Position numbers and translations under genes: made by a program. 64,000 bases of DNA from an uncultured Clostridia bacterium (GTDB lineage Bacteria; Bacillota; Clostridia; Oscillospirales; Acutalibacteraceae), in contig CALCYI010000002.1 of assembly GCA_937907605.1 (NCBI GenBank), forward strand, positions 48,852 to 112,851, read 5' to 3'. Shown piece after piece: positions 30,826-57,434 of the stretch. Below the pieces are notes generated by a model that saw only the letters and a program-made list of their open reading frames with translations, did no database searches and was not told the DNA's origin. Position 1 is the stretch's first letter, and each line of letters starts with the position of its first letter.

Positions 30826-31075
30826 TAATGTTTAATAATTATAATGCTTTGAATCAGTATAAGTAGGTATTGTTTCGCCCTTTAAGAGAGCGCGCGGGCG
30901 GTGAAAGCGCGCAGGAGTACAATGCTGAATTTCAGCTGAGGAGCACTCTGTGAGAAACTAAGCAGAGCGTATGTACTGCGTTAAAGTATATGAGCGACAG
31001 GGGCTTTATATTACCCCTGTAATTTGAGTGGTACCACGGAAATACTTCCGCCTCATAGTGAGGCGGTTTTTTATT
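30826..31075 (+). promoter_or_regulatory. T-box riboswitch leader (Phe specifier UUC) with terminator
   Basis: AGAGA and GGTGAAAG stem I elements; UUC followed by A at 30931-30934; T-box sequence AATTTGAGTGGTACCACGG (31021-31039); terminator CCGCCTC-ATAGT-GAGGCGG plus T-run (31048-31072). The 5' end is approximate. Confidence 0.85.
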
Positions 31076-31093
31076 TATCAGGAGGAAAACACT

Positions 31094-42350: not shown

Positions 42351-42426
42351 GGGCCTGTAGCTCAGCTGGGAGAGTGCCGCGTTCGCAATGCGGAGGTCGA
42401 GGGTTCGAACCCCTTCAGGTCCACCA
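42351..42426 (+). tRNA. tRNA-Ala (anticodon CGC)
   Basis: Cloverleaf folded by hand: acceptor GGGCCTG/CAGGTCC with G3:U70, anticodon loop TTCGCAA, T-loop TTCGAAC, encoded CCA. Confidence 0.9.
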
Positions 42427-42642: not shown

Positions 42643-42718
42643 GGGGCATTAGCGCAGCTGGGAGCGCACCACACTGGCAGTGTGGGGGTCAGGGGTTCAA
42701 GTCCCCTATGCTCCACCA
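42643..42718 (+). tRNA. tRNA-Ala (anticodon GGC)
   Basis: Acceptor GGGGCAT/ATGCTCC with G3:U70, anticodon stem CCACA/TGTGG with loop CTGGCAG, T-loop TTCAAGT, encoded CCA. Confidence 0.9.
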
Positions 42719-42786: not shown

Positions 42787-43191
42787 ATGAAAATGCTGTC
42801 TGCAATACTTTCCTTTATCGGTGCGAATATTCTCTTTTTAATCCTGCACATCCAGAACTCCTCCTCTTTTCCGAAGCCGCTTTCCGCAAAGGAGGAAAAG
42901 GAATACCTGCTTAAAATGGCGGACGGGGATATGAACGCGCGGGCTGTGCTTATTGAGCGTAATCTTCGCCTTGTATCCCATATCGTGAAAAAATACTACT
43001 CCAAAACGAACGATACCGACGAGCTGATTTCAATCGGCACGATAGGACTTATCAAGGCGGTGGACTCCTTTGATATGAATAAGGGAATACACCTTGCAAC
43101 CTACGCTTCAAGGTGTATAGAAAATGCTATACTAACACAGCGGATACTTTTGACGGTGTTTTCACTCAGAATGTGTTCCATGTCCCGCTAA
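42787..43191 (+). pseudogene. sigK: sigK 5' portion (pro-sequence plus regions 1.2-2.4), interrupted by inserted DNA near 43126-43137
   Basis: MKMLSAILSFIGANILFLILHIQNSSSFPKPLSAKEEKEYL...LIERNLRLVSHIVKKY...LISIGTIGLIKAVDSF...LATYASRCIEN matches pro-sigma-K. After CIEN(AIL) the frame reads non-sigma sequence and stops at 43191. No regions 3-4 appear anywhere in the window. Confidence 0.75.
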
Positions 43192-43724
43192 TTGACGAAT
43201 GGAGCGTTTTATCCGCCGATAATCGACTCGCCTTGCTCCACAGGATACATTACGGTAAAATTGAGTATGGAGTTTTCTTTTCGTATCGTGTTTTCGTGAA
43301 CGATTTTAAGCAGTACTCCAAAAAATCGTATGAGCAGATTGACGGCAACACGCTGCACGGCAGGATTCGTAAAAGAAGAATTGACAAACAGATATATGTA
43401 GGCGATATACACAAATTACTCGGTGTCAGTTATTCGCAGTATATTAAAATAGAAAACGGCGAGTATCAGCTTCATCATATGGACAAGCTTATTAGGCTTT
43501 GCGAGATACTTAATATAGCGCCCGAAGAGATTTACACGCCTTACCAGATTTTCATTATGAACAACCAGGGCAAGCAGATAAAAGCGTATAGAAAAGCTAA
43601 TGGTTTAACGCAAACCGAATTAGCAGAACGTCTTTTCGTACATAGAAAGACCGTTTCAAAATGGGAAAATAACACCTGTCAAATGCCGTTTGAGAAATGG
43701 GAAAAAATCAACGGTGTTTGTTAA
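43113..43724 (+). CDS. XRE-family regulator with two HTH_3 domains (start codon uncertain)
   Basis: LHGRIRKRRIDKQIYVGDIHKLLGVSYSQYIKIENG and IKAYRKANGLTQTELAERLFVHRKTVSKWENN. The track start is a GTG inside the sigK fragment, and there is no internal ATG before the first HTH. Confidence 0.55.
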   Translation: MYRKCYTNTADTFDGVFTQNVFHVPLIDEWSVLSADNRLALLHRIHYGKIEYGVFFSYRVFVNDFKQYSKKSYEQIDGNTLHGRIRKRRIDKQIYVGDIHKLLGVSYSQYIKIENGEYQLHHMDKLIRLCEILNIAPEEIYTPYQIFIMNNQGKQIKAYRKANGLTQTELAERLFVHRKTVSKWENNTCQMPFEKWEKINGVC

Positions 43725-43769
43725 GAAAGAATACGCCGCAACGGATGATATTGATCCGCTGCGGCTTTT

Positions 43770-43934
43770 TTACAGTTCCTTTTTCAGTTCTTTGAGTATT
43801 TCCGTCTTTTCGGCATACGAAATCGGAAAGGAGTTTATCCTTTCAAGCATAGCCTTGCCGACGATATATCCGGCTTGCTTTTCAAATTCTTTCCATTGAT
43901 CTTCGCTTTTCGGCAGATAAACTATCGCTTTCAT
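43770..43934 (-). CDS. Small hypothetical protein (54 aa, below the ORF-track cutoff)
   Basis: Own translation: MKAIVYLPKSEDQWKEFEKQAGYIVGKAMLERINSFPISYAEKTEILKELKKEL. GGGGAGAG lies upstream, and a terminator hairpin (43741-43770) lies downstream. Confidence 0.3.
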   Translation of the reverse strand: MKAIVYLPKSEDQWKEFEKQAGYIVGKAMLERINSFPISYAEKTEILKELKKEL

Positions 43935-44061
43935 AATATACTCTCTCCCCTGCTGTTGAAAGTATATTCAAGGAACTGCTTGTCATAGAACTTAATTGCC
44001 ATAAGGCAACACTATTCCTTACTTGATTTTATATCAACCTCCTTAATTTATAATCTCTTTG

Positions 44062-44077
44062 CAGTTCGCACTGCGGG
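44062..44077. repeat. 16-nt repeat copy A: CAGTTCGCACTGCGGG (contains palindrome CGCA-C-TGCG)
   Basis: Matches 46128-46143 at 15 of 16 positions in the same orientation. It lies just 3' of the relaxase gene. Confidence 0.6.
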
Positions 44078-44134
44078 TTTAATAGTTTTCACAATACTTA
44101 CCTTTCTACCTGACTGTCGTCAGGATTTTTTCAT

Positions 44135-45667
44135 TTACATCGACTGACCGAAGCCTTCGTCTTCATCAAGGTCTTCGTCAGTGTCGTTACTGTTGTTCTG
44201 ATTTGTGTTTTGAAGTTGTTGCTGATAGCGTTGCTGCTGGATTGCACGGCGGAGGGAGAAGTCAATAATGCCTGTGCCGATGTTGAGAAGCGCTTCTGCG
44301 TTTTCGGCTGCCCTGCGGCTGTCTTCTTCATTCTTCTCCACCTTCGTGTATTCGCCGCCGACGGAACGCTCGCCGTGAGCAATGCGTTTCTGCTGCTCTT
44401 TGGTGAGCTCCTTGCTGTCCGTCTGCTGTCGCTTTTGCGCATTGATTTCGTTGATGCGGTCAGCTGCCTTGCTGTTGAACAGCGTGGCAATGGATTGCAG
44501 CAGGCTGTTGTAAATATTCGTGTTCTTGCCGATATTCTTCCAGCCGTTATCCGCTCCGAAGATCAGCGATTCCAGTACCGCTTTTATCAGCATATTTTTC
44601 AGCGATTTGAATTCCTTGTTCGCTTCAATCGGAATGTCAGGTGTTTTCTCGCTGTCGTGATAGAGCGCAAGTTTCAGGCGGTTAATCTCGTTCCACTTTG
44701 CGTACATATACTGAAGCGGCAGATTTTCATTTACGATATGCTTCAGCAAATTATCTACGGTGTTCTTGACGTTCTTGGGAAGATAACCGTAAATCTTTTT
44801 GCCTTTGCAAGCATTAAGCTCATTTTGCAGTTGCTTAATCAGTTCAGCAGTTTCATCCGTAATCGGAAATCGCCTGCAGGATATTCCTTCAAGCACTTCT
44901 TTCATCTCCGCTTTCAATTCGTCACGAACGCCCGTCTGCTCTCTGAATAATTTCAGTTGTTCGTTACGGAAAATATCGTTACCGAAGGTACTGCGCATCT
45001 TTTCCATTCCCTTTTTCGTAAGATAGCCCTGACCGGTTTTTGATAAGACTATCAGGTGAATATGCGGATGATGCGTCGTGTTATGAAACGCTGCATACCA
45101 TTCCATATCGCTCGGTTTAAGCTTATGCGCTTCGGCAAGCTCATTCATATTACGGCGCACACATTGTTTCCATGCATCTGCATTGTTGTAGCCAAGGCGT
45201 TCAGCGTCTTCACGGCGCAGGCTGACGACGTGCGTCCAGACGACTCCCTGATGATTTGAAACTTTTTCGGCAATGTCGTCAAGGTTAATCGCTTCGTCCG
45301 TTGCAGAAAACAGACCGTGCGAGCCGAGTTTTTCAACGCCCGGGCGCTCGGCAATATATGAAACAAGGCTCTTAAGTTCATCGGTACGGTCAGCGTCACG
45401 CTCGGCTACTGCGTCGATAAACTCATTGGCGTTAGCTTTGGACGGTTTTGAAATGAAATCGTCGAACTCAATATATTTTTTCGTATCGGGAAAGCATTTT
45501 GTAATTCTGTTTATCAGAGTGAATTGCTGCTGAGTAGCAATAGCGTTGTCAGTACCTTTCGGTAACTTTTCAACGCCCTCACGAGTACCCATATACTTTA
45601 CGAGTTTTCCTGCATTTTGAACGGACGGATTTTTAATGAACCTGCTTGATACAATTATCTTTGCCAT
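44135..45667 (-). CDS. Conjugative relaxase, MobL-like (HUH-type with HxH metal site)
   Basis: N-terminal MAKIIVSSRFIKN...LVKYMGTREGVEKL and HNTTHHPHIHLIV (histidine triad), followed by a coiled-coil, Gln-rich C-terminus. Confidence 0.65.
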   Translation of the reverse strand: MAKIIVSSRFIKNPSVQNAGKLVKYMGTREGVEKLPKGTDNAIATQQQFTLINRITKCFPDTKKYIEFDDFISKPSKANANEFIDAVAERDADRTDELKSLVSYIAERPGVEKLGSHGLFSATDEAINLDDIAEKVSNHQGVVWTHVVSLRREDAERLGYNNADAWKQCVRRNMNELAEAHKLKPSDMEWYAAFHNTTHHPHIHLIVLSKTGQGYLTKKGMEKMRSTFGNDIFRNEQLKLFREQTGVRDELKAEMKEVLEGISCRRFPITDETAELIKQLQNELNACKGKKIYGYLPKNVKNTVDNLLKHIVNENLPLQYMYAKWNEINRLKLALYHDSEKTPDIPIEANKEFKSLKNMLIKAVLESLIFGADNGWKNIGKNTNIYNSLLQSIATLFNSKAADRINEINAQKRQQTDSKELTKEQQKRIAHGERSVGGEYTKVEKNEEDSRRAAENAEALLNIGTGIIDFSLRRAIQQQRYQQQLQNTNQNNSNDTDEDLDEDEGFGQSM

Positions 45668-46071
45668 CAGTTGTCACCGCTCATAAGTTCGTCCGCTTCT
45701 TCCAGAGAAATATATCCGTTGGTCTGAGCAACTTCTTCATTGACAACCTTATTAAGTTCTTGCCAGTCCACGCCTGTATAATCATTAAACGCTGCGTTAA
45801 GACGGTTTAATTTTCCGATTTCAACCGCCATCTTGAAGAGCATTTCGCACATACCTTTTTCCGTATGACGAATTTCATTTTTGATTACTGAAGTTATCAT
45901 CGGCGAGAGATAATCTGCATTTTCATTTTGCAAAAGGTAGCCGATATAGAAATCAATCGCCGTGCGGACGAAGTCACTTCGGTTGACGCAGTTGGATAAA
46001 GGCAGCACTTTATCCATTTGTTTCACCTGACTAGGCAGCTGAAAGTACGCAAACTTTTTCATCGTTTCCAT
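45667..46071 (-). CDS. Relaxosome accessory protein (ribbon-helix-helix-like)
   Basis: RSDFVRTAIDFYIGYL RHH-like segment, and a stop/start overlap with the relaxase. Start moved to ATG 46071 (AGGAG 9 nt upstream). Confidence 0.5.
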   Translation of the reverse strand: METMKKFAYFQLPSQVKQMDKVLPLSNCVNRSDFVRTAIDFYIGYLLQNENADYLSPMITSVIKNEIRHTEKGMCEMLFKMAVEIGKLNRLNAAFNDYTGVDWQELNKVVNEEVAQTNGYISLEEADELMSGDN

Positions 46072-46127
46072 TGTAATCATCTCCTGAATTGTTAATTTGA
46101 GCATACCCCTGTAAAAAATTTCAAAAA

Positions 46128-46143
46128 CAGTCCGCACTGCGGG
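46128..46143. repeat. 16-nt repeat copy B: CAGTCCGCACTGCGGG (palindrome CCGCA-C-TGCGG); candidate oriT core
   Basis: Located about 60 nt upstream of the accessory and relaxase genes. Confidence 0.5.
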
Positions 46144-46151
46144 CTGATGTC

Positions 46152-46184
46152 AAAAGCGAGGCGTGGCGAGATACGCCTCGCTTT
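46152..46184 (-). terminator. Strong hairpin terminator
   Basis: AAAGCGAGGCGT-GGCGAGAT-ACGCCTCGCTTTT. Confidence 0.6.
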
Positions 46185-46295
46185 TACCTGCTTTCAATAA
46201 TTTCTTCGAAATATTGAAATAATCAATCAAGTTTCAGCGTCAATTTTCGTTTCAGAGGTATTTCTTATTATTTTTATTAAGTTTTTAAACCACCC

Positions 46296-46604
46296 CTACC
46301 AAATTTTATTGATAGTGTAGAGATTAGAGAGTCTGTTGCCGTTTGTGTAATCATATCGGTGCGTAATTGAAATCAAACCTTTATCCTCAAGCACCTTAAT
46401 CGCTTCATCAACCGTAGGCTCGGACATACAGCATTCTTTGGCGATAGTGCTTCTTGAAGGATAGCAGTTAAACTTTTTCATATCTGCACGGTGAAACAGA
46501 TAACAGTAAACGGCAAAGTCCCTCGCCTTCAGTTTTTCTTTATAGATACAATTCGGTACGATAAAGAAATTGCCTGAAGGGAATTTTTTGTTACTATGAA
46601 CCAT
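46296..46604 (-). CDS. Winged-helix DNA-binding protein (plasmid/ICE replication- or regulator-like)
   Basis: FFIVPNCIY...ARDFAVYCYLFHRADMKKFNCYPSRSTIAKECCMSEPTVDEAIKVLEDKGLI is typical of helix-turn-helix-domain proteins on Firmicute mobile elements. Confidence 0.55.
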   Translation of the reverse strand: MVHSNKKFPSGNFFIVPNCIYKEKLKARDFAVYCYLFHRADMKKFNCYPSRSTIAKECCMSEPTVDEAIKVLEDKGLISITHRYDYTNGNRLSNLYTINKIW

Positions 46605-46678
46605 AATTAAACTTTTCCTTTCGCAGTATTAAATACCGTGTCCTAAAAAGGGAAATAAAAGTGGACACAATATTCATA

Positions 46679-46707
46679 TTGCATTTTGAAAGGTTATGTG
46701 ATAAAAT
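46679..46707 (+). promoter_or_regulatory. SigA-type promoter of the polymerase-like gene
   Basis: TTGCAT, 17 nt spacer, TAAAAT with an extended TGn. Confidence 0.5.
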
Positions 46708-46722
46708 CTAATCGGTGATGAT

Positions 46723-49700
46723 ATGAATTCAAAGAAATATCGCATTTATGAGCTATCTGCAAGAGCCATAATTGCAAACTCAAAACTGAATTCCGAGGGG
46801 AGAACAATCTTCAATCTCAACTCTGCACAGACAGAAAAGTGCAGGGTTATTTCTGCTTCTCAAGAGCAGGAAAGCAACGCCCTGTTCTATCAGATTATGT
46901 GTGAGAAAAACGGAAACGGTTTTAGTGTTGGAGAGGAGAATGTTATCACCGAACTTGAAGATATAATCTTCTACTGCAACTTTGAAAACATATTTGACAG
47001 AGACGGCAGTTTAAAGAAATACGCTGACCTTCAGAGCAGAGCAAGAGATATGTTTCGTCCCGAAGGTATCACGCTTGACTTCGGCTCGAGTGCATTTCAA
47101 TTCGTTGCATTTGAACGTTCGGCAAGTATGAGCCGCAACGCAAAGCTATCTTTTATCCGCGCCGACTACTATGAGCCGATAAGGAAAAGAATAATGCTCG
47201 GTATGACAATCGATGATTGCCAGCTTTCAAAGCTTTACGCATATAACGGACTGCTGCTGTCCTCGGGAACGAGAATTGAAAACATAAATATTGAAAAGCC
47301 GCATCGGGTAATCGTAATTGATAATCAAAAATACACCGTTGATGCAACGAAAATTATTACAGTTGAAGACGACGGTACGAATGATTCCGTTCGTAAATAT
47401 ACAAGAAAAGAAACGAGAGGCGCAGTGGAGATAACAGGTTTTGACGGCGAAGGTCTTATCTCAAAAGAATACGCCGCCGTTATTGACAAAGCCTACTGCG
47501 GTGAACACTGTCATACCTCTTTTCAGATTCGTCTGCCGTATGTAAAAGGTATGTTGCACCAGGTTGATTTCAAAGACTTTCTTCACAGTGCAGGAACAAA
47601 GACGATAACGGACGTTTTCGGAACCGTTCACAAGGTTAAGGATGTGGATATTATTCTGACCAAAAGTATGTTCAAGGGCTACGGCTGGTTGCTTGATAAC
47701 GGTATGACGTGGGCTGACTACTGGAAGGCATTTTCTGAATACAATCACGCTTTGTATATCACGAACGTCAGCAAGGAACATCCCGAAGAATTTACGGAAC
47801 TGAACTATCAATTTCTGAATACGCTTTCGCTTACAAGAGATGAATTTCGTCCTGCCGATTTACCTGACGGTTGGACTTCTTCCCCTGCTGATAATGAGCG
47901 TAACTGGCTGACGAAGGAAACGGAAACTGCTTACTACAATCTCTGTGCTGATGAAGAATACCGTCTGAACTATTTTCTTAAATATCTGAAGAGACACAAC
48001 CGCAAAACGAAGAATTATCGATTAGCTACTATACTGAAAAGCAATCCGCTTTTTATCAACGAGCCCGTTTACACAAAAGAATTAGAGAACCATGCTGAAA
48101 ACATATTGAAAAAATATGCGCTTGGTAAGTTAATCGTTGCAGGCGATAACCGATTTCTTTCCGGTGATTTAATTGAGATTTTGAATTTGCTGCTTTCGCA
48201 CACCGGCAAAAAAGATAGCAGAGAGCGAAGGTTTTATTCAGTTGCCGTTTCCAATCGCTTTGCAAAGAATTCTTACTATGCGCCGCAGATTGCGTACAAA
48301 CACGGTGGCGAATGCACGCTTCTTCGTAATCCGCATATTGCAAGAAACGAGGAAATTCAGTTAGCCGTTTATCCGCAGGTAGAGCAGATGCGTAAGCATT
48401 ATCTCGGTCATCTTTCGGATATCGTTATCATTGACACACATATGCTCGCCGCAGAGCGACTCGGCGGAGCAGACTATGACGGCGATATGATTAAAACCAT
48501 ATCCGACCCGATTATCAATGCGGCGGTTAAGCGGAATTATGAACTTGACAGTCTTGACAATATGAACAACATTCCGCTTTTAAAAATCCCCGATGCCGAA
48601 CCGCTTATCCGTAATGCTGACGACTGGGAAGCGAGATTTGAAACGGTAAAGAGCACATTTTCTTCACGCGTCGGTCAGATATCAAATGCCGCGCTTGACC
48701 GAAGCATTATTGCTTACGATGAAAACTCCGATTCCGCTTTGCGTAAAAAGTGTCGTGAGGAAACGGAAACGCTCGCTATATTAACGGGTCTTGAAATTGA
48801 CTCTGCAAAAAGCGGAGTTAAGCCCGACCTTACCGAATATCTCGGCAGCGGAAGTATCTCACGCAGTATTTTCCTGACTCACAAAAATCTGGTTGAACAA
48901 TCTGAAACCCGTCGGGAATGGTATCAGGACACTCACCGAGACAAAATCAACAAATTCTTTTCTCAGACTGACTGGAACGCCGTCAGTTCAAACCTTGAAC
49001 TGCTCCCGTACTTTGCCCGTCAGCTGAAAAAACACACGCCGAAGATAAAGGCTCATCCTGCAAAGGACAGCGAGATGTTTGCTTTTGCGGTTAACGATAA
49101 CTGGAAAGATAATCTTGATGCGGATATTCTTTCTGCAGTCAGTGACTTAATTTTGGATTATGAGGCGGTACTCAACCGCATCCGCTTTTGCAAGGTTCCG
49201 ATTAAAAACAAGAACCGCAAAAGCGGTATTGACCGTATTCTTTATTCGAGAGGGCAAGAGAAAATATATAATTCTGATGAACTGTATGCGCTTTTCCAAC
49301 TACTTTCCCCTGAACGTATTTCTGCAATTCGAAATGCAATACGGGGTGAGCGTTGGCATCTGATGGGAGAAAAAGAAAGAGAAGATTTCCTGAACGGATA
49401 TCTTCCCGACGATGATTTTAAGGATTATTATTCTCTCCTTTGTGATTTTCGTTTCGGCGGTTACAAAGTGCTGTACGATTTGATTGCCGATATTGACGAC
49501 GAAAACGCCGCGCTTGATAACAAAAGGCTGATTCGTGATACAGATTCAGCGACATTTGCACAGATGATGCAGGCGTATATGGACAAGTCCGCCGCCGTTT
49601 CATACCGTGAAGCCGTATCTGTAAAATGCAGAGAGTTGCTTGACGGAATAGTTAAGCCAACCGTAGCCGTGCAGTACGTCGTTGCGCTCGGCAAACGGAA

Positions 49701-49758
49701 TCTTCTTTTTGATTTGCTGCTTGACAGCGTTGAAAAAACCGTTTTGAAAAAGGATTAA
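46723..49758 (+). CDS. Eukaryotic-type RdRP-like / two-barrel (double-psi beta-barrel) RNA polymerase homolog, 1011 aa
   Basis: Four ordered signature motifs: AFQFVAFERSASMSR (nt 47092-47136), FQIRLPYVKGM (47521-47553), LLRNPHIARNEE (RNPH at 48325-48336) and GGADYDGDMIKTISDP (DYDGD at 48472-48486). They parallel FLAFS.SQLR, FQIRygGyKGv, KNPcLHPGD and GGDLDGD of cellular RdRPs. Confidence 0.75.
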   Translation: MNSKKYRIYELSARAIIANSKLNSEGRTIFNLNSAQTEKCRVISASQEQESNALFYQIMCEKNGNGFSVGEENVITELEDIIFYCNFENIFDRDGSLKKYADLQSRARDMFRPEGITLDFGSSAFQFVAFERSASMSRNAKLSFIRADYYEPIRKRIMLGMTIDDCQLSKLYAYNGLLLSSGTRIENINIEKPHRVIVIDNQKYTVDATKIITVEDDGTNDSVRKYTRKETRGAVEITGFDGEGLISKEYAAVIDKAYCGEHCHTSFQIRLPYVKGMLHQVDFKDFLHSAGTKTITDVFGTVHKVKDVDIILTKSMFKGYGWLLDNGMTWADYWKAFSEYNHALYITNVSKEHPEEFTELNYQFLNTLSLTRDEFRPADLPDGWTSSPADNERNWLTKETETAYYNLCADEEYRLNYFLKYLKRHNRKTKNYRLATILKSNPLFINEPVYTKELENHAENILKKYALGKLIVAGDNRFLSGDLIEILNLLLSHTGKKDSRERRFYSVAVSNRFAKNSYYAPQIAYKHGGECTLLRNPHIARNEEIQLAVYPQVEQMRKHYLGHLSDIVIIDTHMLAAERLGGADYDGDMIKTISDPIINAAVKRNYELDSLDNMNNIPLLKIPDAEPLIRNADDWEARFETVKSTFSSRVGQISNAALDRSIIAYDENSDSALRKKCREETETLAILTGLEIDSAKSGVKPDLTEYLGSGSISRSIFLTHKNLVEQSETRREWYQDTHRDKINKFFSQTDWNAVSSNLELLPYFARQLKKHTPKIKAHPAKDSEMFAFAVNDNWKDNLDADILSAVSDLILDYEAVLNRIRFCKVPIKNKNRKSGIDRILYSRGQEKIYNSDELYALFQLLSPERISAIRNAIRGERWHLMGEKEREDFLNGYLPDDDFKDYYSLLCDFRFGGYKVLYDLIADIDDENAALDNKRLIRDTDSATFAQMMQAYMDKSAAVSYREAVSVKCRELLDGIVKPTVAVQYVVALGKRNLLFDLLLDSVEKTVLKKD

Positions 49759-49764
49759 CGTCAC

Positions 49765-49793
49765 TTGAAATTTTATTATTAATATGCTATAAT
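49765..49793 (+). promoter_or_regulatory. Near-consensus SigA promoter directly after the polymerase stop codon
   Basis: TTGAAA, 17 nt spacer, TATAAT with an extended TGc. Confidence 0.65.
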
Positions 49794-49795
49794 TG

Positions 49796-49990
49796 TGGCA
49801 GATTTAGAATTTAATTCTAATTTTGCCATATAATAATGGAGACGTTAGTGTGAAAAATCACACTAACCAATTATATTGCCCGCTCAGTTTGTCGCTACGC
49901 AACAACGAGCGATGGCTGTCATCACCATTAACGCCTGTTCAGGCAACACAGGATTTAGGTGATTTTTAATGAACTATTTGTTGCCTGAAA
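49796..49990 (+). other. Structured roughly 200-nt leader or small RNA
   Basis: Hairpins at 49796-49828 and 49844-49867 (9-bp perfect stem GTTAGTGTG/CACACTAAC). The local hairpin CCTGT/ACAGG (49934-49952) competes with a perfect 10-bp long-range pairing, TTCAGGCAAC (49938-49947) with GTTGCCTGAA (49980-49989), next to the ATPase RBS. Confidence 0.4.
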
Positions 49991-50006
49991 GGCTATGGTG
50001 ATTAAC

Positions 50007-51263
50007 ATGTATATTCCCCGTCATTTAGAAGAAAGGCTGTTAAAATCAAGCGAAACATATAAATCTGTTTTGGTAACAGGCGCAAGGCAGGTAGGTAAAT
50101 CTACACTGCTTAAACAAATATTTCCTGATAGGAAGTATGTTTCTCTTGACGACCCCTTTATAGAAGAACAAGCAAAAGAAAACGGAAGCATGTTTTTGAT
50201 GCTCAACCAACCTCCCGTTACGATTGACGAGGTACAAAGAGCACCCGAATTGTTTCGCTATATTAAAATCAAATGCGACGAAACAGATGATAAAGGACTG
50301 TTCTGCCTTTCAGGTTCACAGCAATTCAAATTAATGCAAAACGTTTCCGAAACGCTGTCTGGCAGAATTAATATAATTGAGCTTGCGGGATTATCGCTCA
50401 GAGAAATTCAGAGCGATTCTTTTAACAAACGATTTCTTCCCACTCTGGAATATATTACAGAAAGGCAGAAAACGGCAAAAGCCCCTGAAAACATCTGGGA
50501 AATTATTCACCGTGGCTCTTATCCCGCGTTACAGGACAAGAACCTCGACTGGGCGTCTTTTTATGCAGATTATGTTAAAACGTATATTGAAAGAGATGTA
50601 CGCGAACTGTCTGCCGTGCAGGACTTAGACGCTTTTCGCCGTTTTATGATTGCAACAGCAGCAAGAACGGGAGAGATTCTTAACTACAGCAGCATTGCAA
50701 GTGAAATCGGCAAAGACATCGGAACAGTTAAAAACTGGATTTCCATTCTTGAAGCCTCCGGCGTTATATATTTACTGGAACCCTACACGGCATCCGTTCT
50801 TAAACGCGCTATCAAATCGCCCAAGCTGTATTTCCGTGATACGGGACTGGCTTGTTACCTGACTCGCTGGCTGAGTGCAGAAGCGCTTGCATACGGTGCT
50901 ATGAGCGGTCATATTTTTGAGACCTTTGTTATATCAGAGCTCTTGAAATCTTTTTCAAATGCAGGACTTGATTACAGTTATTTTGTTTCCTATTATCGCG
51001 GAAGAGATAAAAAGAAAATAAAGCAGAACGGCGAAGAAATTGAACTGGAAAGCGAAATAGATTTTATCATTGAGGAAAACGGCGTTCTTTATCCAATTGA
51101 AATCAAGTCTGCTTCTAAGGTTACTGCAAGCGAAACGAGTGCGTTCACCGTGCTTGATAAAATAGAAAATAAAAAGCGTGGTGCGGGCGCTATTATTTGT
51201 ATGTGTCCTCAGCCCGGCAGTCTCAGGGAAAACGTGCTTCAGATTCCTGTTTGGTATATATAA
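50007..51263 (+). CDS. AAA-family ATPase of the AAA_14/DUF4143 type
   Basis: MYIPRHLE N-terminus and Walker A VTGARQVGKST, with a C-terminal restriction-endonuclease-like region typical of DUF4143. Start could also be 49995. Confidence 0.7.
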   Translation: MYIPRHLEERLLKSSETYKSVLVTGARQVGKSTLLKQIFPDRKYVSLDDPFIEEQAKENGSMFLMLNQPPVTIDEVQRAPELFRYIKIKCDETDDKGLFCLSGSQQFKLMQNVSETLSGRINIIELAGLSLREIQSDSFNKRFLPTLEYITERQKTAKAPENIWEIIHRGSYPALQDKNLDWASFYADYVKTYIERDVRELSAVQDLDAFRRFMIATAARTGEILNYSSIASEIGKDIGTVKNWISILEASGVIYLLEPYTASVLKRAIKSPKLYFRDTGLACYLTRWLSAEALAYGAMSGHIFETFVISELLKSFSNAGLDYSYFVSYYRGRDKKKIKQNGEEIELESEIDFIIEENGVLYPIEIKSASKVTASETSAFTVLDKIENKKRGAGAIICMCPQPGSLRENVLQIPVWYI

Positions 51264-51265
51264 TT

Positions 51266-52096
51266 ATGTTAAACGAAATTGAAGAATTCAAGGCATATAC
51301 CACGCCCGTTATCTATACGGCTGAAAGTAAAAGAGATACTTCTTATCTTGGCAGGTTTACCTTTGATGCCTTTATGGAATTCAGAGGACTCAGCCGTGTG
51401 CTGACGATTATTGCCCGAGGGTATATGTTTGAAACCGAAATGCCGGATACCGAGCGTGCAAGGCGTGCCTTGTGCGCCTGGTGCAGTATGCCTGAAATGA
51501 AAAAAGCCACTCCTAAAGAGGCGTGGCAGTTTACAACAGATTTCCGTTACCTTCACGGTGAGTTCCCCGAACTCGTTGATAACAATGGTAACGGGTGGTA
51601 CTTTCATCATATTAAAAATGTGTATAAATTTATTAAATGCTATCCAGACAAGGTAAGCAAGGTTGCCGTTAATAAAGCTGATTTGCTCGGCAGCAAGTAT
51701 GACAGAGAATGGCACAAAAAACTGTTGCAGTTTCAATATCCTATATTTACGCCACAGACAGAAAGCTGGGTAATGACTTTTGACAGTATCGTTGCAGATG
51801 CATTAGTGCTCGGTCCGCTGAAAGACAAGACAGTTAATCTTTCCGAAGAAACTCTGAAGAGAATTAACGAGTTTAATACAAGCGACGTGCCTGAAGAAAT
51901 TATCGTTCTTTTAGTACAATACTATCTTGCGAATAAGCCTGACGATTCAGACTGGGTGGTGCTACCGACGGCGAACTTTGATATGTATTTCGGCAACACC
52001 AATTTCAGCAAGAAGTGGCTGAAACAAATTCCCGACAGCATAATTATCCGCGACACTTTCAGTTTTGGCGTCGGAAGATACAAAGTCGTTATTTGA
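51266..52096 (+). CDS. Hypothetical protein (276 aa) coupled to the ATPase gene
   Basis: ATG lies 2 nt after the ATPase stop; no motif recognised. Confidence 0.5.
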   Translation: MLNEIEEFKAYTTPVIYTAESKRDTSYLGRFTFDAFMEFRGLSRVLTIIARGYMFETEMPDTERARRALCAWCSMPEMKKATPKEAWQFTTDFRYLHGEFPELVDNNGNGWYFHHIKNVYKFIKCYPDKVSKVAVNKADLLGSKYDREWHKKLLQFQYPIFTPQTESWVMTFDSIVADALVLGPLKDKTVNLSEETLKRINEFNTSDVPEEIIVLLVQYYLANKPDDSDWVVLPTANFDMYFGNTNFSKKWLKQIPDSIIIRDTFSFGVGRYKVVI

Positions 52097-52167
52097 AGAG
52101 GGGTTTGTTATTATTTCTCTAAAGATTTTATCCCAGGCGTTATAAAAGATTTTTATTTAGAAATATT

Positions 52168-52199
52168 AAAGAGTAGTTACCGAAAAGGTACTACTCTTT
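52168..52199. terminator. Bidirectional terminator between convergent modules
   Basis: AAAGAGTAGTTACC-GAAAA-GGTACTACTCTTT. Confidence 0.65.
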
Positions 52200-52218: not shown

Positions 52219-52881
52219 TTATTTGTTTTTCAGATATTCAGCTGAAACGGGAAAATCAAAATAGGTGTCAGGAAAAGGCTCATCCTTTAAGGTAAAATGC
52301 CACCATTCGCAGTCTATTGGTTCAAAGCCGTTTCGCACCATAATTTTTTGCAGGAACATACGGTTTTCGTACTGCTCGTCGGTAACGCCCTTGTAATCGG
52401 GATGCGAAACCTCGCTGAAAAAGTCAAACGGACTGCCCATATCAATTTCCTTGCCCGTTGCCATATCAAGCAGCGTTAAATCAACGGTGCTGCCTCTGCT
52501 ATGGCTTGACTGACTTGCGATATAGCCAAGCTCAAATAGCGCCGTTTTTTCAAGGTCGGGATAGAAAAAGGGTTTCGTTCTTAAATCCAAATCCTCAATA
52601 CCCCAAAGCACAAAATGCTTGACTGCTCTTGCAGGTCTGTACGCGTCAAATATTTTTAGTCGGTAACCTGCAACGTTTGCCTCGTTCGCAACAGCTTTCA
52701 GCGCTCTTGCCGCGTCTTTCGTGATAATCGCACAGGGCTCTTCATAACCGTCAACTCTGTCGCCGACAAAGTTATAGGTTGAAAAATAGCGGATTTCCTG
52801 CACGATGGAGGGAACGTAATCCGAAAGTAATACAAAGCGCGAGCAATCAAGCTCTGCTTCTCTTTTAAAATCAGTAGCCAT
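52219..52881 (-). CDS. D-alanyl-D-alanine dipeptidase (VanX/DdpX, M15D)
   Basis: SHSRGSTVDL (SxHxxGxAxD) and CEWWHF motifs. Confidence 0.8.
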   Translation of the reverse strand: MATDFKREAELDCSRFVLLSDYVPSIVQEIRYFSTYNFVGDRVDGYEEPCAIITKDAARALKAVANEANVAGYRLKIFDAYRPARAVKHFVLWGIEDLDLRTKPFFYPDLEKTALFELGYIASQSSHSRGSTVDLTLLDMATGKEIDMGSPFDFFSEVSHPDYKGVTDEQYENRMFLQKIMVRNGFEPIDCEWWHFTLKDEPFPDTYFDFPVSAEYLKNK

Positions 52882-52885
52882 AACG

Positions 52886-53689
52886 TTATTCCTTACTCAT
52901 AAATTGTAACAGGCGCTCTTTATAATCGGGAGCAGTATCAAAAGCGGCGTGACCGTAGCCGTTATACAGATAACTTTCAAAATCTTGATTATCCGAAAAC
53001 AAAATTTCAAGCTCTTCAGCAGCACCGGGCAGCACCTTATCGTCCGCTGCGCCGAGTGATAAAACGGGACATTTAATGTTGCGGAGTTCCTTTGATATAT
53101 CAAAATCTTTTGTGCCTTCGGCAAAAAGAATGAAACGTTCGAGTTCAGAGTCGGTAATGCTTTCGCCCGTCTTTTTCAGCACCTCTTTATACTGCTCAAA
53201 AAGAGCCTCGGGATAAAGGACCCTGCCCATTTCAAGGCTGAGATTAATTCCGTCTTTTTTCTTTGCCAGAGCAGTCCACTTTGATATTGCGTTAAACTGC
53301 TTTTCGGTAATACGTGCCGAAGAGGAGCCGAGCATCAGCTTTTTGACATGTTCGGAATAACGGGCAGCAATCGTCATAGCAATCATTCCGCCCTGCGACG
53401 CACCGAAAAGATAAATGTCCTTCAGTCCGAGAGTGCAAAATATCTTTGCCGTATTCTCAGCCATATCGTAAACGGAATACTGCTGCGGAAGCTCGTTTCT
53501 TCGGTCAAACACATAAGCAGTGAATTCCTCTGCGATAACGGCATAAGCCTTTTCAATCATATCCGCAGCGCCCATCACGCTCTGAACGCTCATCCCCGGA
53601 AGGATAATGAAAGTCTTTTCGCCCTTTCCGAAGGTAAAATAGTTCATAGTGAAATTATCGGCGCATGCCGTTTTAATCGAAATACTCAT
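52886..53689 (-). CDS. Alpha/beta hydrolase
   Basis: GASQGG nucleophile elbow (GxSxG); 267 aa. Confidence 0.65.
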   Translation of the reverse strand: MSISIKTACADNFTMNYFTFGKGEKTFIILPGMSVQSVMGAADMIEKAYAVIAEEFTAYVFDRRNELPQQYSVYDMAENTAKIFCTLGLKDIYLFGASQGGMIAMTIAARYSEHVKKLMLGSSSARITEKQFNAISKWTALAKKKDGINLSLEMGRVLYPEALFEQYKEVLKKTGESITDSELERFILFAEGTKDFDISKELRNIKCPVLSLGAADDKVLPGAAEELEILFSDNQDFESYLYNGYGHAAFDTAPDYKERLLQFMSKE

Positions 53690-53694
53690 ATTAA

Positions 53695-54831
53695 TCAGAA
53701 ATAAAGTTTATCTATTTTAGGCACGTTTTCGATTAAATAATCCTTGCAAAACGCAACAACTTGATCTCCAAAGCGCAAAGCGTCGTTGTGCCTTGATATC
53801 CATCTGAGCAGGCGCGCATAACAGATAGTTTCAACCATTCTTATGATGCTGTCAACCTTTTCCTGCTCCTCACCTTCAAAATAGTACTTAACCGTGTATT
53901 TCCAGAAATCTTCGCACTGCTCACGCTTAATTCCAAGAAAATTTGCGCTGTTTTCTTTATCAACGCAGCTGAATCCGACGTATGCTGCAAAGATAGCAGC
54001 GAATTCAAAAACGGGATGTCCCATAGAAAGCGTATCCATATCAATCAGCAGGTTTTCGCCGTTTTGCTGCATGATATTTTTGATATGATAATCGCCGTGG
54101 AGCATATTATTCGTTTCAGGAATATCCTTAAAAAGCGAGAGCAACTTTTCGCCGATTTCCTCGGGAAGATGAGGCTTAACATATTCAGCCCAGCCGATTG
54201 CCTCTTCACTTTTGCTCGGAAGTTCGCCGTCCTTTAGCATAGTTGAATGAATCGTTTTAAGAATGTCTACGCTCTCCTTTGCAAGTTCGTCAATGTCGCC
54301 GCCTTCGGCAATAAGTTTTGAAAAGGACTTGGCATTAAGCAGCTCGAAAACCGAGCCGTATAAATCACCAACCTGAACAACGTCGTAAGGAATAGCCGTT
54401 GGAATTCCCATAACAAAGGCTTTTCTTGCAAGCTCGCGCTCATTATGTATTTCGTCAAGCGAATCGGGGTTTTTATAAACCTTAACGATAGTGTCGGGGT
54501 CCGTACGGTAAACGATACCGTTTGCACCCTCTCCGATAACCTCGCATCCTTCAACGGAAAGCTTTCTGTACGCCTTTGAAATATCCATCATTTCCGTAAA
54601 GCCCGTCATATCAAAGATTTCATAAACCTCTGAATTACAGTTTACTACCTTTGTTTCGGCGTTTGCTTTTTTCAGGCGTAGAATAACGCGAAGTCCTGCG
54701 CTTGAAATATATTCAAGCCCGCTTGCATCAAGAATAAGCTCGCCGCTATAATCGCCTATCTGTTCATTGATTTTTGCTTCTGTTTCTGCCGCATTTGAAG
54801 AATCAATTCGTCCTGTTAAATTAATAGTCAT
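53695..54831 (-). CDS. STAS domain fused to an APH/choline-kinase-like phosphotransferase domain
   Basis: N-terminal LEYISSAGLRVILRL (SpoIIAA-like phospho-serine motif) and a C-terminal Brenner-type HGDYHIKNIM...LIDMD kinase motif. Confidence 0.6.
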   Translation of the reverse strand: MTINLTGRIDSSNAAETEAKINEQIGDYSGELILDASGLEYISSAGLRVILRLKKANAETKVVNCNSEVYEIFDMTGFTEMMDISKAYRKLSVEGCEVIGEGANGIVYRTDPDTIVKVYKNPDSLDEIHNERELARKAFVMGIPTAIPYDVVQVGDLYGSVFELLNAKSFSKLIAEGGDIDELAKESVDILKTIHSTMLKDGELPSKSEEAIGWAEYVKPHLPEEIGEKLLSLFKDIPETNNMLHGDYHIKNIMQQNGENLLIDMDTLSMGHPVFEFAAIFAAYVGFSCVDKENSANFLGIKREQCEDFWKYTVKYYFEGEEQEKVDSIIRMVETICYARLLRWISRHNDALRFGDQVVAFCKDYLIENVPKIDKLYF

Positions 54832-54835
54832 TAGT

Positions 54836-55399
54836 TTAGTCCTCCCCGTTGAAAACGTGAGTTACGAGCTTTTCATATTCCTTATATGCAGGATAGTCTG
54901 AAAGTTCTCTGATATATTCAAGTATCGTTGAATGATACCAGTATTGCTCTTTTGGATTCTTTTCGTTAAAACGGTCAAACACCGCTGCGCCGATTTTGTC
55001 AAAATCTCTTGCAAGTGAGCGCATATTGGAGAGCTTATCGCCGAGCCAAAGCATTTTGGTTTCAATGCCCGCGTCTTTCAACACGGCAAGGCTTTCTTCC
55101 TTGCGGATTTTCCACGACTGACTAGGCGGCATATCGGGACGTTTATCCTCCGTTTCGTGCGCTACGAGTTCTGCGACTCTTGGTCCGAAATTATCAAGAA
55201 TATCCTGCGCAGTAACAGGCGTATCCTCCACCGTATCGTGAAGCACGGCGGCAGCAAGAATCTCTAAGTCATTTGTCATCGTGCCGACAATCGTTGCATC
55301 CTCAAGCGGATGAAGAATATACACGCCGCCGTCCTTTCTCGTCTGTCCCTCGTGCGCTTTAAGCGCAAAGGCAACGGCTTTATCAAAAACATTGCTCAT
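54836..55399 (-). CDS. HD-domain protein, SpoT/Mesh1-like (p)ppGpp hydrolase type
   Basis: HPLEDATIV...AAVLHDTVEDT signature; 187 aa, with no synthetase domain. Confidence 0.65.
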   Translation of the reverse strand: MSNVFDKAVAFALKAHEGQTRKDGGVYILHPLEDATIVGTMTNDLEILAAAVLHDTVEDTPVTAQDILDNFGPRVAELVAHETEDKRPDMPPSQSWKIRKEESLAVLKDAGIETKMLWLGDKLSNMRSLARDFDKIGAAVFDRFNEKNPKEQYWYHSTILEYIRELSDYPAYKEYEKLVTHVFNGED

Positions 55400-55412
55400 A
55401 AAACTGTTTCCT

Positions 55413-57434
55413 TTATATTTTCTTTGTCATAGTCAGAATATTATAGCCGTCCTTGTATTCATACGAAACGGAGTCCATATTCTTTTTGGTAAGGTATATA
55501 CCGAGCCCGCCGACTTCTCTTTCATCTGCTGAAAGTGAAATATCAGGGTCTTCCTTTTCAAGCGGATTATACGGAACGCCGCTATCCTTGAACGTTATAG
55601 TGATTTCGCCGTCGCTGCAATCCGCAGATATTTCCGCCTTGCCTACGCCGTCGCCGTAAGCATAATTTGCAATATTGACATAGATTTCCTCAACGGATAA
55701 GTCAATTTGCATTTGGGCTTTCATTGATGCGCCGTTTTCTTCCAAAACGCCGTCAACAAAATCCATTACCGTATGCAGGTTTTCCGTTGTGGCGTCTACG
55801 GTCAGCGTATTTCCCTCATTGCCTTTCAGTTCAAGACAGAGCATGGTTAAATCGTCAAACTGCGCTGCGTCACCGACGAACTCACTCACACACTCATTAA
55901 CGCCGTCCAGAATATCCTGTGGTTTTTCATCTTTATACTTATTCAGCGCCTCAATCATACCGTTTAAGGTGAACATTTTTTCGTCCTTATCGGTAGCCTC
56001 CGGCAGACCGTCGGTATAAAGGAAAATTTTATCACCCTTATTCAGTTGAATTTCAAAGTCCTTGTATTTTATGCCTGACATTGCGCCTACGACAAGACCG
56101 TGCTTATTCTTAACAATTTCAAACTGACCGCCCTTGCGATAAACTGCGGGGTCGTCGTGACCTGCGTTTGCAGCGAGGATTTTGCCCGTTGAAATTTCAA
56201 GAATACCGAGCCATACCGTTACGAACATATCCGCCTGATTATGGTCGCATATACTGTCATTAACAAAGGTGAGAATTTCGGCAGGAGTGCCGCCCATATG
56301 CGTTCTGTCGCTGATAAGAATATTCGTTACCATCATAAACAGCGCTGCGGGAATACCTTTGCCTGAAACGTCCGCCATTACCATAGCGAGATGGTCATCG
56401 TCAACAAGGAAGAAATTATAGAAATCGCCGCCGACCTCCTTTGCAGGAGTCATTGAAGCGTAAACGTCAAAATCCTTTCTTTGCGGGAAGGCGGGGAAAA
56501 TATTTGGAACTGAATTTTCCTGAATGGTTTTGGCAATATTCAGTTCTGCGCCGATACGCTCCTTTTCGGAGGTTACGGCAGTCAGATTATCAATGTATGC
56601 CAGCATATCGTCCTCCATTTTATCAATGGAACGGGCAAGCGTTGAAATTTCTTCAATTTTGCTGACGTTGCCAAGCTCGTCGCCCTTTTTGTTTTCCAAA
56701 GCGAAACGGCTTGTTTCACTGCTGACGCGCTTCATCGGATTTACAAATTCCTTGCGAATATAAAAGGCTGAAGTTAAAGCAACCATCACGGAAAGAATAA
56801 CCGTTGAAATGGCAATATTTATTAAATACGGACGTCTGGCATCTCTCAGCTCCTCCATGGGTCTTTGAATGCACATCAAGCTGACAACCTCGCCCTGCGA
56901 ATTTTTAAGAGGTGCTAATGTTGTGATATGCGGCGGCGCACCGTTTAGTTTAGTCGTTCTGTAAACTGTGCCGTAAGCGAGGTCGTTTTCATATATATCA
57001 CGATAGATTTCAACATATTCCTCGTTCGTGGTGTCCTGTTGATAACCAATTTTCCAAGGCGTGTATGGCGTATCCTCTCCGACGGAATTGAACACAGACG
57101 TAAACCTGCCGTAATCAGTGGTATCGACCTTGATGACGTACACAATAGAAACATCCATTTTCTCGCAGAAGGCGTCAAGATACTGCTTTGTCTGCTGATA
57201 TTCCTCCGACTGCCCGCCGTCTGCAAGATAGTCATCAATATGGTCGCCGTTTACAAGTAAGGCAGCAGTATCAGCCATACTTGCGGTCGTATTACTGTAT
57301 TCTCTTTTAAAAGCGTTTGTAAAGCTGACATAGCCTATAACGCTCACAATCCAGCTGAACACTAAAAGCAGCAACACTACGGCGCTTATAATATTAAACG
57401 CTAAGCTACTGCGTAATTTTTGTATCTTTTTCAT
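55413..57434 (-). CDS. Membrane sensor: extracytoplasmic domain-HAMP-PP2C (SpoIIE-type) phosphatase fused to an RsbW/SpoIIAB-like HATPase
   Basis: Two TM segments, PP2C motifs (EVGGDFYNF, MADVSGKGIPAALFM, TDGLPEA) and a C-terminal GGLGIYL ATP-lid motif. Confidence 0.7.
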   Translation of the reverse strand: MKKIQKLRSSLAFNIISAVVLLLLVFSWIVSVIGYVSFTNAFKREYSNTTASMADTAALLVNGDHIDDYLADGGQSEEYQQTKQYLDAFCEKMDVSIVYVIKVDTTDYGRFTSVFNSVGEDTPYTPWKIGYQQDTTNEEYVEIYRDIYENDLAYGTVYRTTKLNGAPPHITTLAPLKNSQGEVVSLMCIQRPMEELRDARRPYLINIAISTVILSVMVALTSAFYIRKEFVNPMKRVSSETSRFALENKKGDELGNVSKIEEISTLARSIDKMEDDMLAYIDNLTAVTSEKERIGAELNIAKTIQENSVPNIFPAFPQRKDFDVYASMTPAKEVGGDFYNFFLVDDDHLAMVMADVSGKGIPAALFMMVTNILISDRTHMGGTPAEILTFVNDSICDHNQADMFVTVWLGILEISTGKILAANAGHDDPAVYRKGGQFEIVKNKHGLVVGAMSGIKYKDFEIQLNKGDKIFLYTDGLPEATDKDEKMFTLNGMIEALNKYKDEKPQDILDGVNECVSEFVGDAAQFDDLTMLCLELKGNEGNTLTVDATTENLHTVMDFVDGVLEENGASMKAQMQIDLSVEEIYVNIANYAYGDGVGKAEISADCSDGEITITFKDSGVPYNPLEKEDPDISLSADEREVGGLGIYLTKKNMDSVSYEYKDGYNILTMTKKI

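Follow-up and report, generated by a model that had tools for sequence, protein, structure and literature searches.

Bacterial relatives of the polymerases that act in RNA interference (RNAi) have been called enigmatic since 2003 and, to our knowledge, YonO is the only one of them that has been studied. Here, a further relative is described from a 64,000-nucleotide stretch of contig CALCYI010000002.1 of an uncultured Clostridia bacterium (referred to below, at its full length, as the window). It is an RNA-dependent RNA polymerase (RdRP)-like protein, encoded together with a 276-amino acid (aa) partner, p276, by what its gene content indicates to be a compact integrative and mobilizable element (IME). 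A previous sequence-only reading of this DNA had placed both genes in a self-contained module composed of a winged helix-turn-helix (wHTH) protein, the polymerase, a promoter with a structured RNA, an ATPase, and the 276-aa protein, and had compared it with retrons and defence-associated reverse transcriptases (DRT) or, alternatively, with an element-encoded transcription machine like YonO.

YonO and the window polymerase have homologous catalytic cores, are single polypeptides of about 100 kDa, and are encoded by mobile elements of Firmicutes. They differ in context, as the clade studied here is found in small mobilizable elements and not in phages (one of the 80 viral-contig matches belongs to the clade), is always accompanied by p276, which has no counterpart at the phage homologues, and has an origin of transfer (oriT), relaxase, and replication genes as neighbours instead of late structural genes. 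The best full-length structural matches are QDE-1 and RDR2, which share the Pfam RdRP family and the DYDGD catalytic loop with the window polymerase, and QDE-1 also uses single-stranded DNA templates; the window polymerase, however, is bacterial, encoded by a mobile element, without RNAi partners, only 12-16% identical to them, and of predicted function. Within the same superfamily, Iyer and Aravind (2011) proposed that element-encoded RdRP-like enzymes of selfish elements are possible primases aiding element replication; in the summary given in PMC3417536 their partners are restriction endonuclease (REase) or URI nucleases or RNase H, whereas here the partner is p276 and the context an IME. 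A functional analogy for the polymerase, p276, and the AAA_25 or DUF927-like helicase of its relatives may be seen in CCPol-MP-Cch2 of SCCmec (PMC7581432), a chromosomal element moved by recombinases, in which a non-canonical polymerase is combined with an orphan, homologue-less small partner that confers priming and with an adjacent helicase. The differences are that CCPol has an A-family and not a two-barrel fold, that CCPol-MP makes DNA primers, and that the window copy carries a wHTH gene in place of a helicase gene.

In the literature, we found no description of a fixed p276 partner, of an IME context with an oriT, or of the replication-type neighbours; these appear to be new, while the kind of polymerase is known from computational work. 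The statement of the sequence-only reading that either function would be undescribed for this protein family was thus partly right, as RdRP-like polymerases of selfish elements with a proposed primase role are already reported in the part of the literature summarised in PMC3417536.

The polymerase and its partner p276

The polymerase open reading frame (ORF) named by the earlier reading is present, and its product matches Pfam family PF05183 (5.3e-17, 62 bits against a cut-off of 23.8, residues 104-712) and PHROG 4291, "RNA-dependent RNA polymerase" (9.9e-11). Across 23 aligned sequences reaching down to 26% identity, D241, Q268, R270, P272, K275, K318, R535, and P537 are invariant, and so are D584, D586, G587, and D588 of the catalytic motif GGADYDGD; by inspection, we take the residues of the polymerase to map onto the eight invariant residues of Ruprich-Robert and Thuriaux. 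With tblastn, SPbeta yonO was found at 2e-7 (24.6% identity over residues 126-605), and stronger matches (7e-42) were obtained to genes of Thomasclavelia phages annotated as RdRP.

The AlphaFold (AF2) model of the polymerase (predicted local distance difference test, pLDDT, 85.3; predicted template-modelling score, pTM, 0.79) was compared with the Protein Data Bank (PDB) using Foldseek. The top 21 matches were all RDR2 or QDE-1 (E from 1.5e-14 to 1.8e-11, probability 1.0), with alignments of about 850-1100 columns each that cover the full length of the polymerase and TM scores of 0.41-0.48; they include QDE-1 bound to a DNA template (as the title of PDB entry 7Y7T states), and Rpb1 of Pol II came next, only at E > 0.2. 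A sequence search of the PDB with the polymerase profile gave no match at 0.01. As the invariant residues, the tblastn matches to yonO and the phage genes, and the structural neighbours point the same way, membership of the RdRP/YonO branch of two-barrel (double-psi beta-barrel) RNA polymerases is well supported by sequence and model, and the protein, a relative of QDE-1, RDR2, and YonO, appears from its residues to be catalytically intact. At E <= 0.001, the family comprises 1,422 clusters at 50% identity.

A scan of species representatives (one genome per species) revealed at least 477 genomes with a relative of the polymerase, and gene neighbourhoods were counted in the best 80 polymerase loci, all of them of Oscillospirales; the clade considered here comprises polymerases of at least 49% identity. 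Its cultivable carriers include Ruminococcus flavefaciens ND2009, Lawsonibacter hominis, and Flavonifractor sp. HCP28S3_F3. A homologue of p276 is located directly 3' of the polymerase gene in 71 of the 71 loci with at least 300 bp of sequence on that side. The distance from the polymerase stop to the p276 start is -11 nt in 31 loci, -8 in 19, -4 in 10, and -1 in 6, the remaining ones lying within +/-20 nt (overlaps of 1-20 nt or gaps of at most 6 nt) except in L008, whose gap of 1507 nt is the sole large one and contains the same insertion as the window. In L001-L003, with a polymerase 92% identical to that of the window, and in L004-L006 (72%), for example, a gene of 275/276 aa follows after a 2-nt gap or an 11-nt overlap; the L008 polymerase is 97% identical. 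In the window, the reading frames of the polymerase and p276 are intact and 97% and 93% identical, respectively, to their closest relatives. Since the overlap with the polymerase gene is tight and universal, p276 is expected to be a stoichiometric partner of the enzyme. It is probably a DNA-binding or specificity subunit.

There are about 1,000 homologues of p276, all unnamed and without Pfam domains, and p276 itself had no match in Pfam, PHROG, or PADLOC, while the PDB sequence search gave noise only. The AlphaFold model is confident (pLDDT 90.5, pTM 0.88), and Foldseek comparison with PDB and BFVD gave no match better than E = 0.3. Weak matches that recur for the C-terminal approximately 85 aa are to winged-helix proteins (RepE, RepA_N- and RepL-like initiators, CodY, and ArsR-type proteins), which hints at a winged-helix-like C-terminus joined to a novel N-terminal part. 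On viral contigs, only distant homologues of the polymerase (at most 30% identity) were found, except for one locus at a contig end, and the p276 profile finds the partner only beside polymerases of this clade, not beside the distant phage homologues.

Element backbone, oriT, and replication-type neighbours

Nearly all of the best 80 loci with enough flanking DNA lie within small transferable elements. Among the 44 loci with enough upstream DNA, a relaxase gene was found in 36 and an integrase gene in 38. When the neighbouring genes of all 80 loci were clustered, two backbones recurred: one consists of an integrase (of the tyrosine type in 29 loci, of the serine type in 20), HTH_17, a PF03432 relaxase, a NikA-like protein, an AAA_25 or DUF927-like protein (about 585 aa), and the divergent polymerase-p276 pair; the other of an integrase, MobL, a 156-aa protein (p156), the wHTH protein (sometimes with AAA_25), and, again divergent, polymerase-p276. 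Pairwise comparison of element copies showed about 9-9.5 kb in common, and no conjugation genes (type IV secretion system, T4SS) were found in the 9-kb segment or in the related backbones. Because the relaxase, integrase, and replication neighbours recur and the copies have about 9-9.5 kb in common, these elements can be classified, by gene content, as compact IMEs of about 9-10 kb, widespread in gut Oscillospirales, of which polymerase-p276 is backbone and not cargo.

The window and L008 have exactly 43118-52099 in common, and their flanks differ; the supposedly self-contained block is hence one part of this segment and, moreover, contains a foreign 1.5-kb insertion. At the slot that is occupied in relatives by a serine or tyrosine recombinase, both copies carry an XRE gene (6454-7005 in L008).

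The hairpin at 46152-46185, which had been taken for the left terminator of the block, lies within the element and is predicted to be the oriT inverted repeat next to a nick motif of the MOBP type. It is strong (dG -23 to -26, z = -3.9), as is the hairpin at 52168-52199 thought to bound the block on the right (dG -21 to -22, z about -6), yet with their short T-tracts neither passes as a terminator in the scan; for the right one, a role as terminator of the convergent VanX-like gene (52219-52881, minus strand) is the most plausible. The arrangement of two successive hairpins and the nick motif upstream of the relaxase operon is kept in the 13 distinct MobL-type loci compared, with a conserved hairpin 1 (CCCGCACTGCGGG type), a hairpin 2 that varies in sequence, and TTTA[T/A]CCTGCTT in 13 of 13. 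RNAalifold indicated compensatory changes in nine of 14 pairs, and in a pair-count test 91.2% of the cells were paired, against 74% in shuffles (0/500) and 37-48% with the partners slid.

In the window, the nick motif reads TTTTACCTG^CTT, with the predicted nick (^) between 46190 and 46191 of the plus strand. The sequence ATCCTG^C is the nick consensus of MOBP relaxases (e.g., that of RP4) and of T-DNA borders, and the window motif matches the MOBP consensus YATCCTG^Y. In RP4, the repeat is located on the 5' side of the nick, and the relaxase operon is the last part to be transferred; if this rule holds here, the plus strand would be transferred, and the wHTH, polymerase, and p276 genes would constitute the leading region.

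The wHTH ORF, also present as described and divergent from the polymerase gene, matches 14 PHROGs (replication initiation, O-like, helicase loader, and primosomal; down to 1.1e-15), and its product appears to be a homologue of the DNA-binding domain found at the N-terminus of phage replication-initiation, O-like, and DnaD-like loader proteins. Replication-type neighbours were counted within 3 kb in 54 loci. The wHTH gene stands beside the polymerase in 19 of them, about a third, and elsewhere a helicase-like gene is found in its place; altogether, 43 loci have a divergent wHTH, AAA_25, or approximately 585-aa, weakly DUF927-matching gene at most 3 kb upstream. The AAA_25 protein of the relatives matches helicase parts of primase-helicases and DnaB-like helicases, and no canonical primase or Rep domain was detected among the scanned backbone proteins. 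The wHTH and polymerase genes diverge from a 118-nt region that contains an inverted repeat, GTGTCC-N19-GGACAC (46639-46669), a candidate operator or origin element. The coordinates of the features are collected in Table 1.

Table 1. Features of the element, its inserted cassette, and its right flank (window positions).
Feature	Position	Strand	Basis or remark
IME segment	43118-52099		megablast vs L008, 95.6% identity; left end abuts truncated sigK
XRE-type HTH gene	43113-43724	+	Pfam HTH_3 7.7e-16; true start probably downstream of 43113
MobL / MobP3 relaxase	44135-45667	-	Pfam MobL 9.3e-31; NCBIfam MobP3 8.1e-93
Relaxase accessory protein, 156 aa, no known domain	45667-46137	-	kept upstream of MobL in relatives; annotated start probably overshoots
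oriT (predicted)	46128-46193	+	hairpin 1 46128-46146, hairpin 2 46152-46185, nick motif 46182-46193
wHTH, 102 aa	46296-46604	-	Pfam HTH_36 4.7e-13, weak DnaD_N; PHROGs
Polymerase, 1011 aa	46723-49758	+	Pfam RdRP, invariant residues, tblastn to yonO, AF2, Foldseek
Cassette, 1505 bp	49759-51263	+	blastn vs L001/L004, junctions, gap statistics
Cassette promoter, TTGAAA-17-TATAAT with TG	49765-49793	+	best site in 9.5-kb scan, 11/12 matches
Palindrome at predicted transcription start (TGGCAGATTTAGAATT/AATTCTAATTTTGCCA)	49796-49828	+	conserved across ATPase family
Remaining ATPase 5' untranslated region	49829-50006	+	strongly folded, not conserved among ATPase homologues
AAA_14 + DUF4143 ATPase	50007-51263 (ORF finder 49995, 422 aa)	+	Pfam, PADLOC PDC-S01
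p276, 276 aa	51266-52096	+	conserved ATG; follows polymerase in relatives
Right hairpin	52168-52199		outside DNA common to relatives; directly 3' of convergent VanX-like gene

Some of the related loci carry further genes. A DUF6809 gene (about 105-116 aa), absent from the window, is present in 20 of them, either convergent just after p276 or beside the integrase (e.g., L051 13890-14207 and L027 4074-4424). Beyond the element in L001 (14541-23036), two large TIR-domain proteins, a radical SAM enzyme, an aldehyde dehydrogenase, and a methyltransferase are encoded, which may represent a defence island or cargo. A 60-bp repeat in L048, L051, and L052 was considered as the att sites of a 15-kb element and rejected, as the intervening genes (tRNA synthetase, MatE, and oxidoreductase) look chromosomal; the homology of the copies ends at about 14.2 kb.

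The inserted ATPase cassette and the surroundings of the element

The promoter, the RNA, and the ATPase gene named by the sequence-only reading proved to be foreign to the polymerase operon. Positions 44129-49758 and 51261-52099 of the window are collinear with L001 at 88-92% identity, and 49759-51260 has no counterpart there; together with the junctions (GGATTAA^CGTCAC...TATATAA^TTATG in the window vs GGATTAATTATG in L001), this indicates that the promoter, leader, and ATPase gene entered as one insertion. The cassette starts 6 nt ahead of its -35 box and extends to the stop codon of the ATPase gene, with a 3-nt TAA ambiguity at the junction, and among the related loci it is present only in the window and L008. 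Judging from the alignment, it landed exactly in the 2-nt junction between the polymerase gene and p276, and p276 has since been coupled to the stop codon of the ATPase gene rather than to that of the polymerase gene. The near-consensus promoter and the DUF4143-type ATPase were confirmed, and so was the coupling, with the p276 ATG 2 nt after the ATPase stop.

Translation of the ATPase likely starts at ATG 50007, which is preceded by a Shine-Dalgarno sequence GGTGA, and the homologues align from residue 6. With its AAA_14 and DUF4143 domains, the protein matches the PADLOC model PDC-S01 (COG1373-type) over its full length (1.4e-96; residues 2-416 vs model positions 11-415 of 422), and is therefore a candidate defence gene with a predicted anti-phage role, for which no demonstrated mechanism was found in the literature; what distinguishes the window copy is that it interrupts a mobile-element operon.

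The gene was compared with 80 metagenomic loci (L087-L166) encoding homologues 61-81% identical to it. Most of the upstream regions examined contain a strong sigma-70-type promoter followed by a 30-40-nt palindrome at the predicted transcription start, in which the core GAAT-N-ATTC is kept and the outer arms covary (GGCAGAT with ATCTGCC, CGACTAAT with ATTAGTCG, and GAGAAAT with ATTTCTC). The palindrome of the window is a probable operator or 5' hairpin, and the cassette is probably autoregulated; we found no published description of such a promoter-palindrome control element for the PDC-S01/DUF4143 ATPase family. Among the homologues, the start codon lies 13 to about 190 nt from the palindrome, and the extra 160-180 nt of the window is not conserved. 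The structured, untranslated RNA of about 200 nt is confirmed as to its fold, since the leader (49800-49994) folds at -60.1 kcal/mol against -38.0 +/- 3.9 in shuffles (z = -5.7); the palindrome is its only conserved portion. Nothing in Rfam matched the leader at the gathering score, and matches to miRNA and snoRNA families at E up to 10 were at chance level. In one of the compared loci (L107, 147-380), three tandem units of about 50 nt (AACACCCTGCGGGTATCCCTTTATGCACAAAAAGCATGTGCA...) are found in the leader, 3' of the palindrome and before the start codon.

About 80 unrelated contexts contain the ATPase unit by itself, under its own promoter, which suggests a self-contained single-gene cassette. 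No near-identical DNA copy of the cassette was found in the metagenome scan, where the homologues are about 65-73% identical and similar in DNA over the coding sequence alone; nor were terminal inverted repeats detected at the cassette. Near the polymerase, another ATPase is encoded only in L037 (14025-15308) and L038 (13317-14600); it is DUF4143-type, and as it is located after p276 and is only 21% identical, it was presumably acquired independently. This second ATPase marks the site directly 3' of the polymerase-p276 operon as an apparent cargo hotspot.

The block is thus a composite of two unrelated things, the leading half of a mobile element and an inserted ATPase cassette; the explanation as a whole, which includes the priming role discussed below, has about even odds in our view. 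With retrons and DRT it shares only the superficial layout of a polymerase, a structured RNA, and an NTPase; the window polymerase is not a reverse transcriptase, and since the RNA and NTPase form the separate unit PDC-S01, this layout is an accident of insertion.

To the left, the element abuts a sigK-like 5' half (42859-43134, plus strand), 59.8% identical to residues 4-95 of Bacillus subtilis SigK, which stops inside the CIENxIL motif where the mobile segment begins (junction about 43118-43135). No sigK 3' half, att-like repeat, or junction repeat was found anywhere in the window, and the gene could be either a skin-like split gene with its other half beyond the window or one lost through an insertion combined with a deletion. 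Two tRNA-Ala genes (CGC and GGC anticodons; 42351-42426 and 42643-42718) lie shortly before the sigK fragment. Farther away, a T-box leader (133 bits) was found at 30840-31058, upstream of the gene 31028-32146. On the right, a minus-strand run at 52219-57434, unrelated to the polymerase element, encodes a VanX-like D-Ala-D-Ala dipeptidase, an alpha/beta hydrolase, a STAS-APH kinase fusion, an HD protein, and a SpoIIE-phosphatase/HATPase fusion of the partner-switching type.

Possible functions of polymerase-p276 and their meaning

The best reading of polymerase-p276 is that of an element-encoded RNA-synthesising machine. As to its purpose, we lean, tentatively and with somewhat less than even confidence, towards replication priming of the excised or newly established circle rather than YonO-like transcription. 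The polymerase and p276 would make RNA on the element DNA and thereby prime replication of its circular form after excision or transfer, working with the origin-binding wHTH protein in the window or with the RepA/DnaB-like or DUF927-like helicase in the relatives; the result would be a primosome of a non-canonical polymerase, a small partner, and a helicase, like CCPol-MP-Cch2. Priming is favoured because an orphan-partner polymerase located beside an initiator or helicase parallels that system and matches the earlier primase proposal.

Several observations weigh against the priming view. YonO, so far the one bacterial relative to have been characterised, is no primase but transcribes phage late genes as a processive DNA-dependent enzyme (PMC5467207), and the priming activity of the present clade is putative, being drawn from sequence, models, and analogy. 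By the clustering used, 11 of the 54 loci have none of the three replication-type neighbours, and the winged-helix assignment of p276 comes from non-significant structural matches (best E = 0.3). With the strands assigned as in RP4, the transferred one would be the coding strand of the polymerase gene, and therefore the enzyme would not be made in the recipient before the complementary strand; if this strand assignment is right, it could not prime the first complementary strand unless the protein itself were transferred. Further points concern the state of the copy: there is no integrase in window 43118-52099 nor in L008, so that the same left end stands in two chromosomal contexts without an integrase of its own, and the window lacks the 313-bp right arm of L008 (15378-15690) and L001 (13873-14185). 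As the window diverges from these two loci 3 nt past the p276 stop, the element ending at 52099, the right arm seems truncated or replaced, and the window copy may be non-autonomous or decaying.

Among the alternatives, the most serious, to which we give a somewhat lower probability than to priming, is a YonO-like transcriptase, in which p276 would be the promoter-specificity subunit and the polymerase would transcribe element genes (e.g., transfer or excision genes, or cargo) independently of the host RNA polymerase. The homology to yonO keeps this option of the sequence-only reading viable, a DNA-binding-like partner would suit a sigma-like role, and the position of the pair in the leading region next to oriT would allow early expression after transfer. 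The elements, however, are only about 9-10 kb long with approximately eight genes, and the one well-scoring promoter here is of the ordinary sigma-70 type; p276 was not found beside phage YonO-like genes, and the conserved neighbours are of the replication type (initiator-like wHTH, helicases) and not the late-gene block of the phage context. A clearly more doubtful view sees in polymerase-p276 a conflict system carried by the element, with an anti-defence or establishment function or as a two-gene defence system, for example through antisense or double-stranded RNA made from invading or host nucleic acid, as in QDE-1/RDR silencing. The full-length structural similarity to RNA-silencing RdRPs would fit it, as would the variable cargo hotspot directly downstream and the predicted entry of the pair into the recipient first; plasmids often keep anti-defence genes in their leading region. 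Against it, the genes point the opposite way from what expression off the incoming single strand would require, the clustered neighbourhoods contain no conserved nuclease, Argonaute, or other effector, neither protein has a PADLOC match, and replication and mobilisation genes, not defence islands, are what the pair is strictly linked to.

By far the least probable is the five-part module proposed by the sequence-only reading, a retron- or DRT-like defence system with the ATPase as effector; that the polymerase uses or makes the structured RNA is just as improbable. In its favour, all five parts are contiguous in the window and L008, p276 is translationally coupled to the ATPase gene, the ATPase family is itself a candidate defence gene, and a second, unrelated DUF4143 ATPase follows p276 in L037/L038. 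Co-occurrence nevertheless separates the parts: p276 accompanies the polymerase throughout and the wHTH gene does so in part, but the promoter, RNA, and ATPase recur only in L008, with no ATPase or leader between the polymerase and p276 in 70 of 71 loci. Moreover, even ATPase homologues do not conserve the leader beyond the palindrome, the ATPase unit stands by itself elsewhere, PADLOC recognises neither polymerase nor p276, and the pair tracks the relaxase, integrase, and oriT, as backbone does and cargo does not. The five-part reading is effectively refuted by these data; the proposal as a whole was half-right, wrong in the composition of the module, with its element-encoded, YonO-like polymerase still a live option.

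Returning to replication priming, the polymerase of the QDE-1/RDR type with its undescribed partner could serve a large family of mobilizable elements of gut Clostridia as their priming or replicative RNA polymerase, a proposal that we advance with rather limited confidence. If true, it would add a third structural class of primase to DnaG and the archaeo-eukaryotic primases (AEP), besides the A-family CCPol, and the ancestral role proposed for an enzyme family later recruited by eukaryotes for RNA silencing would have a living example. For readers of such loci, the composition of the block is a caution, as a layout of polymerase, RNA, and NTPase can come about by chance insertion; the PDC-S01 candidate defence gene, in turn, travels as a promoter-to-stop cassette with a conserved palindromic control element. 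Finally, a large, clean, and experimentally tractable clade is now defined, with the polymerase-p276 unit, the oriT, and the replication-type neighbours named, and the question of what the bacterial relatives of RNAi polymerases do becomes open to direct experiment.

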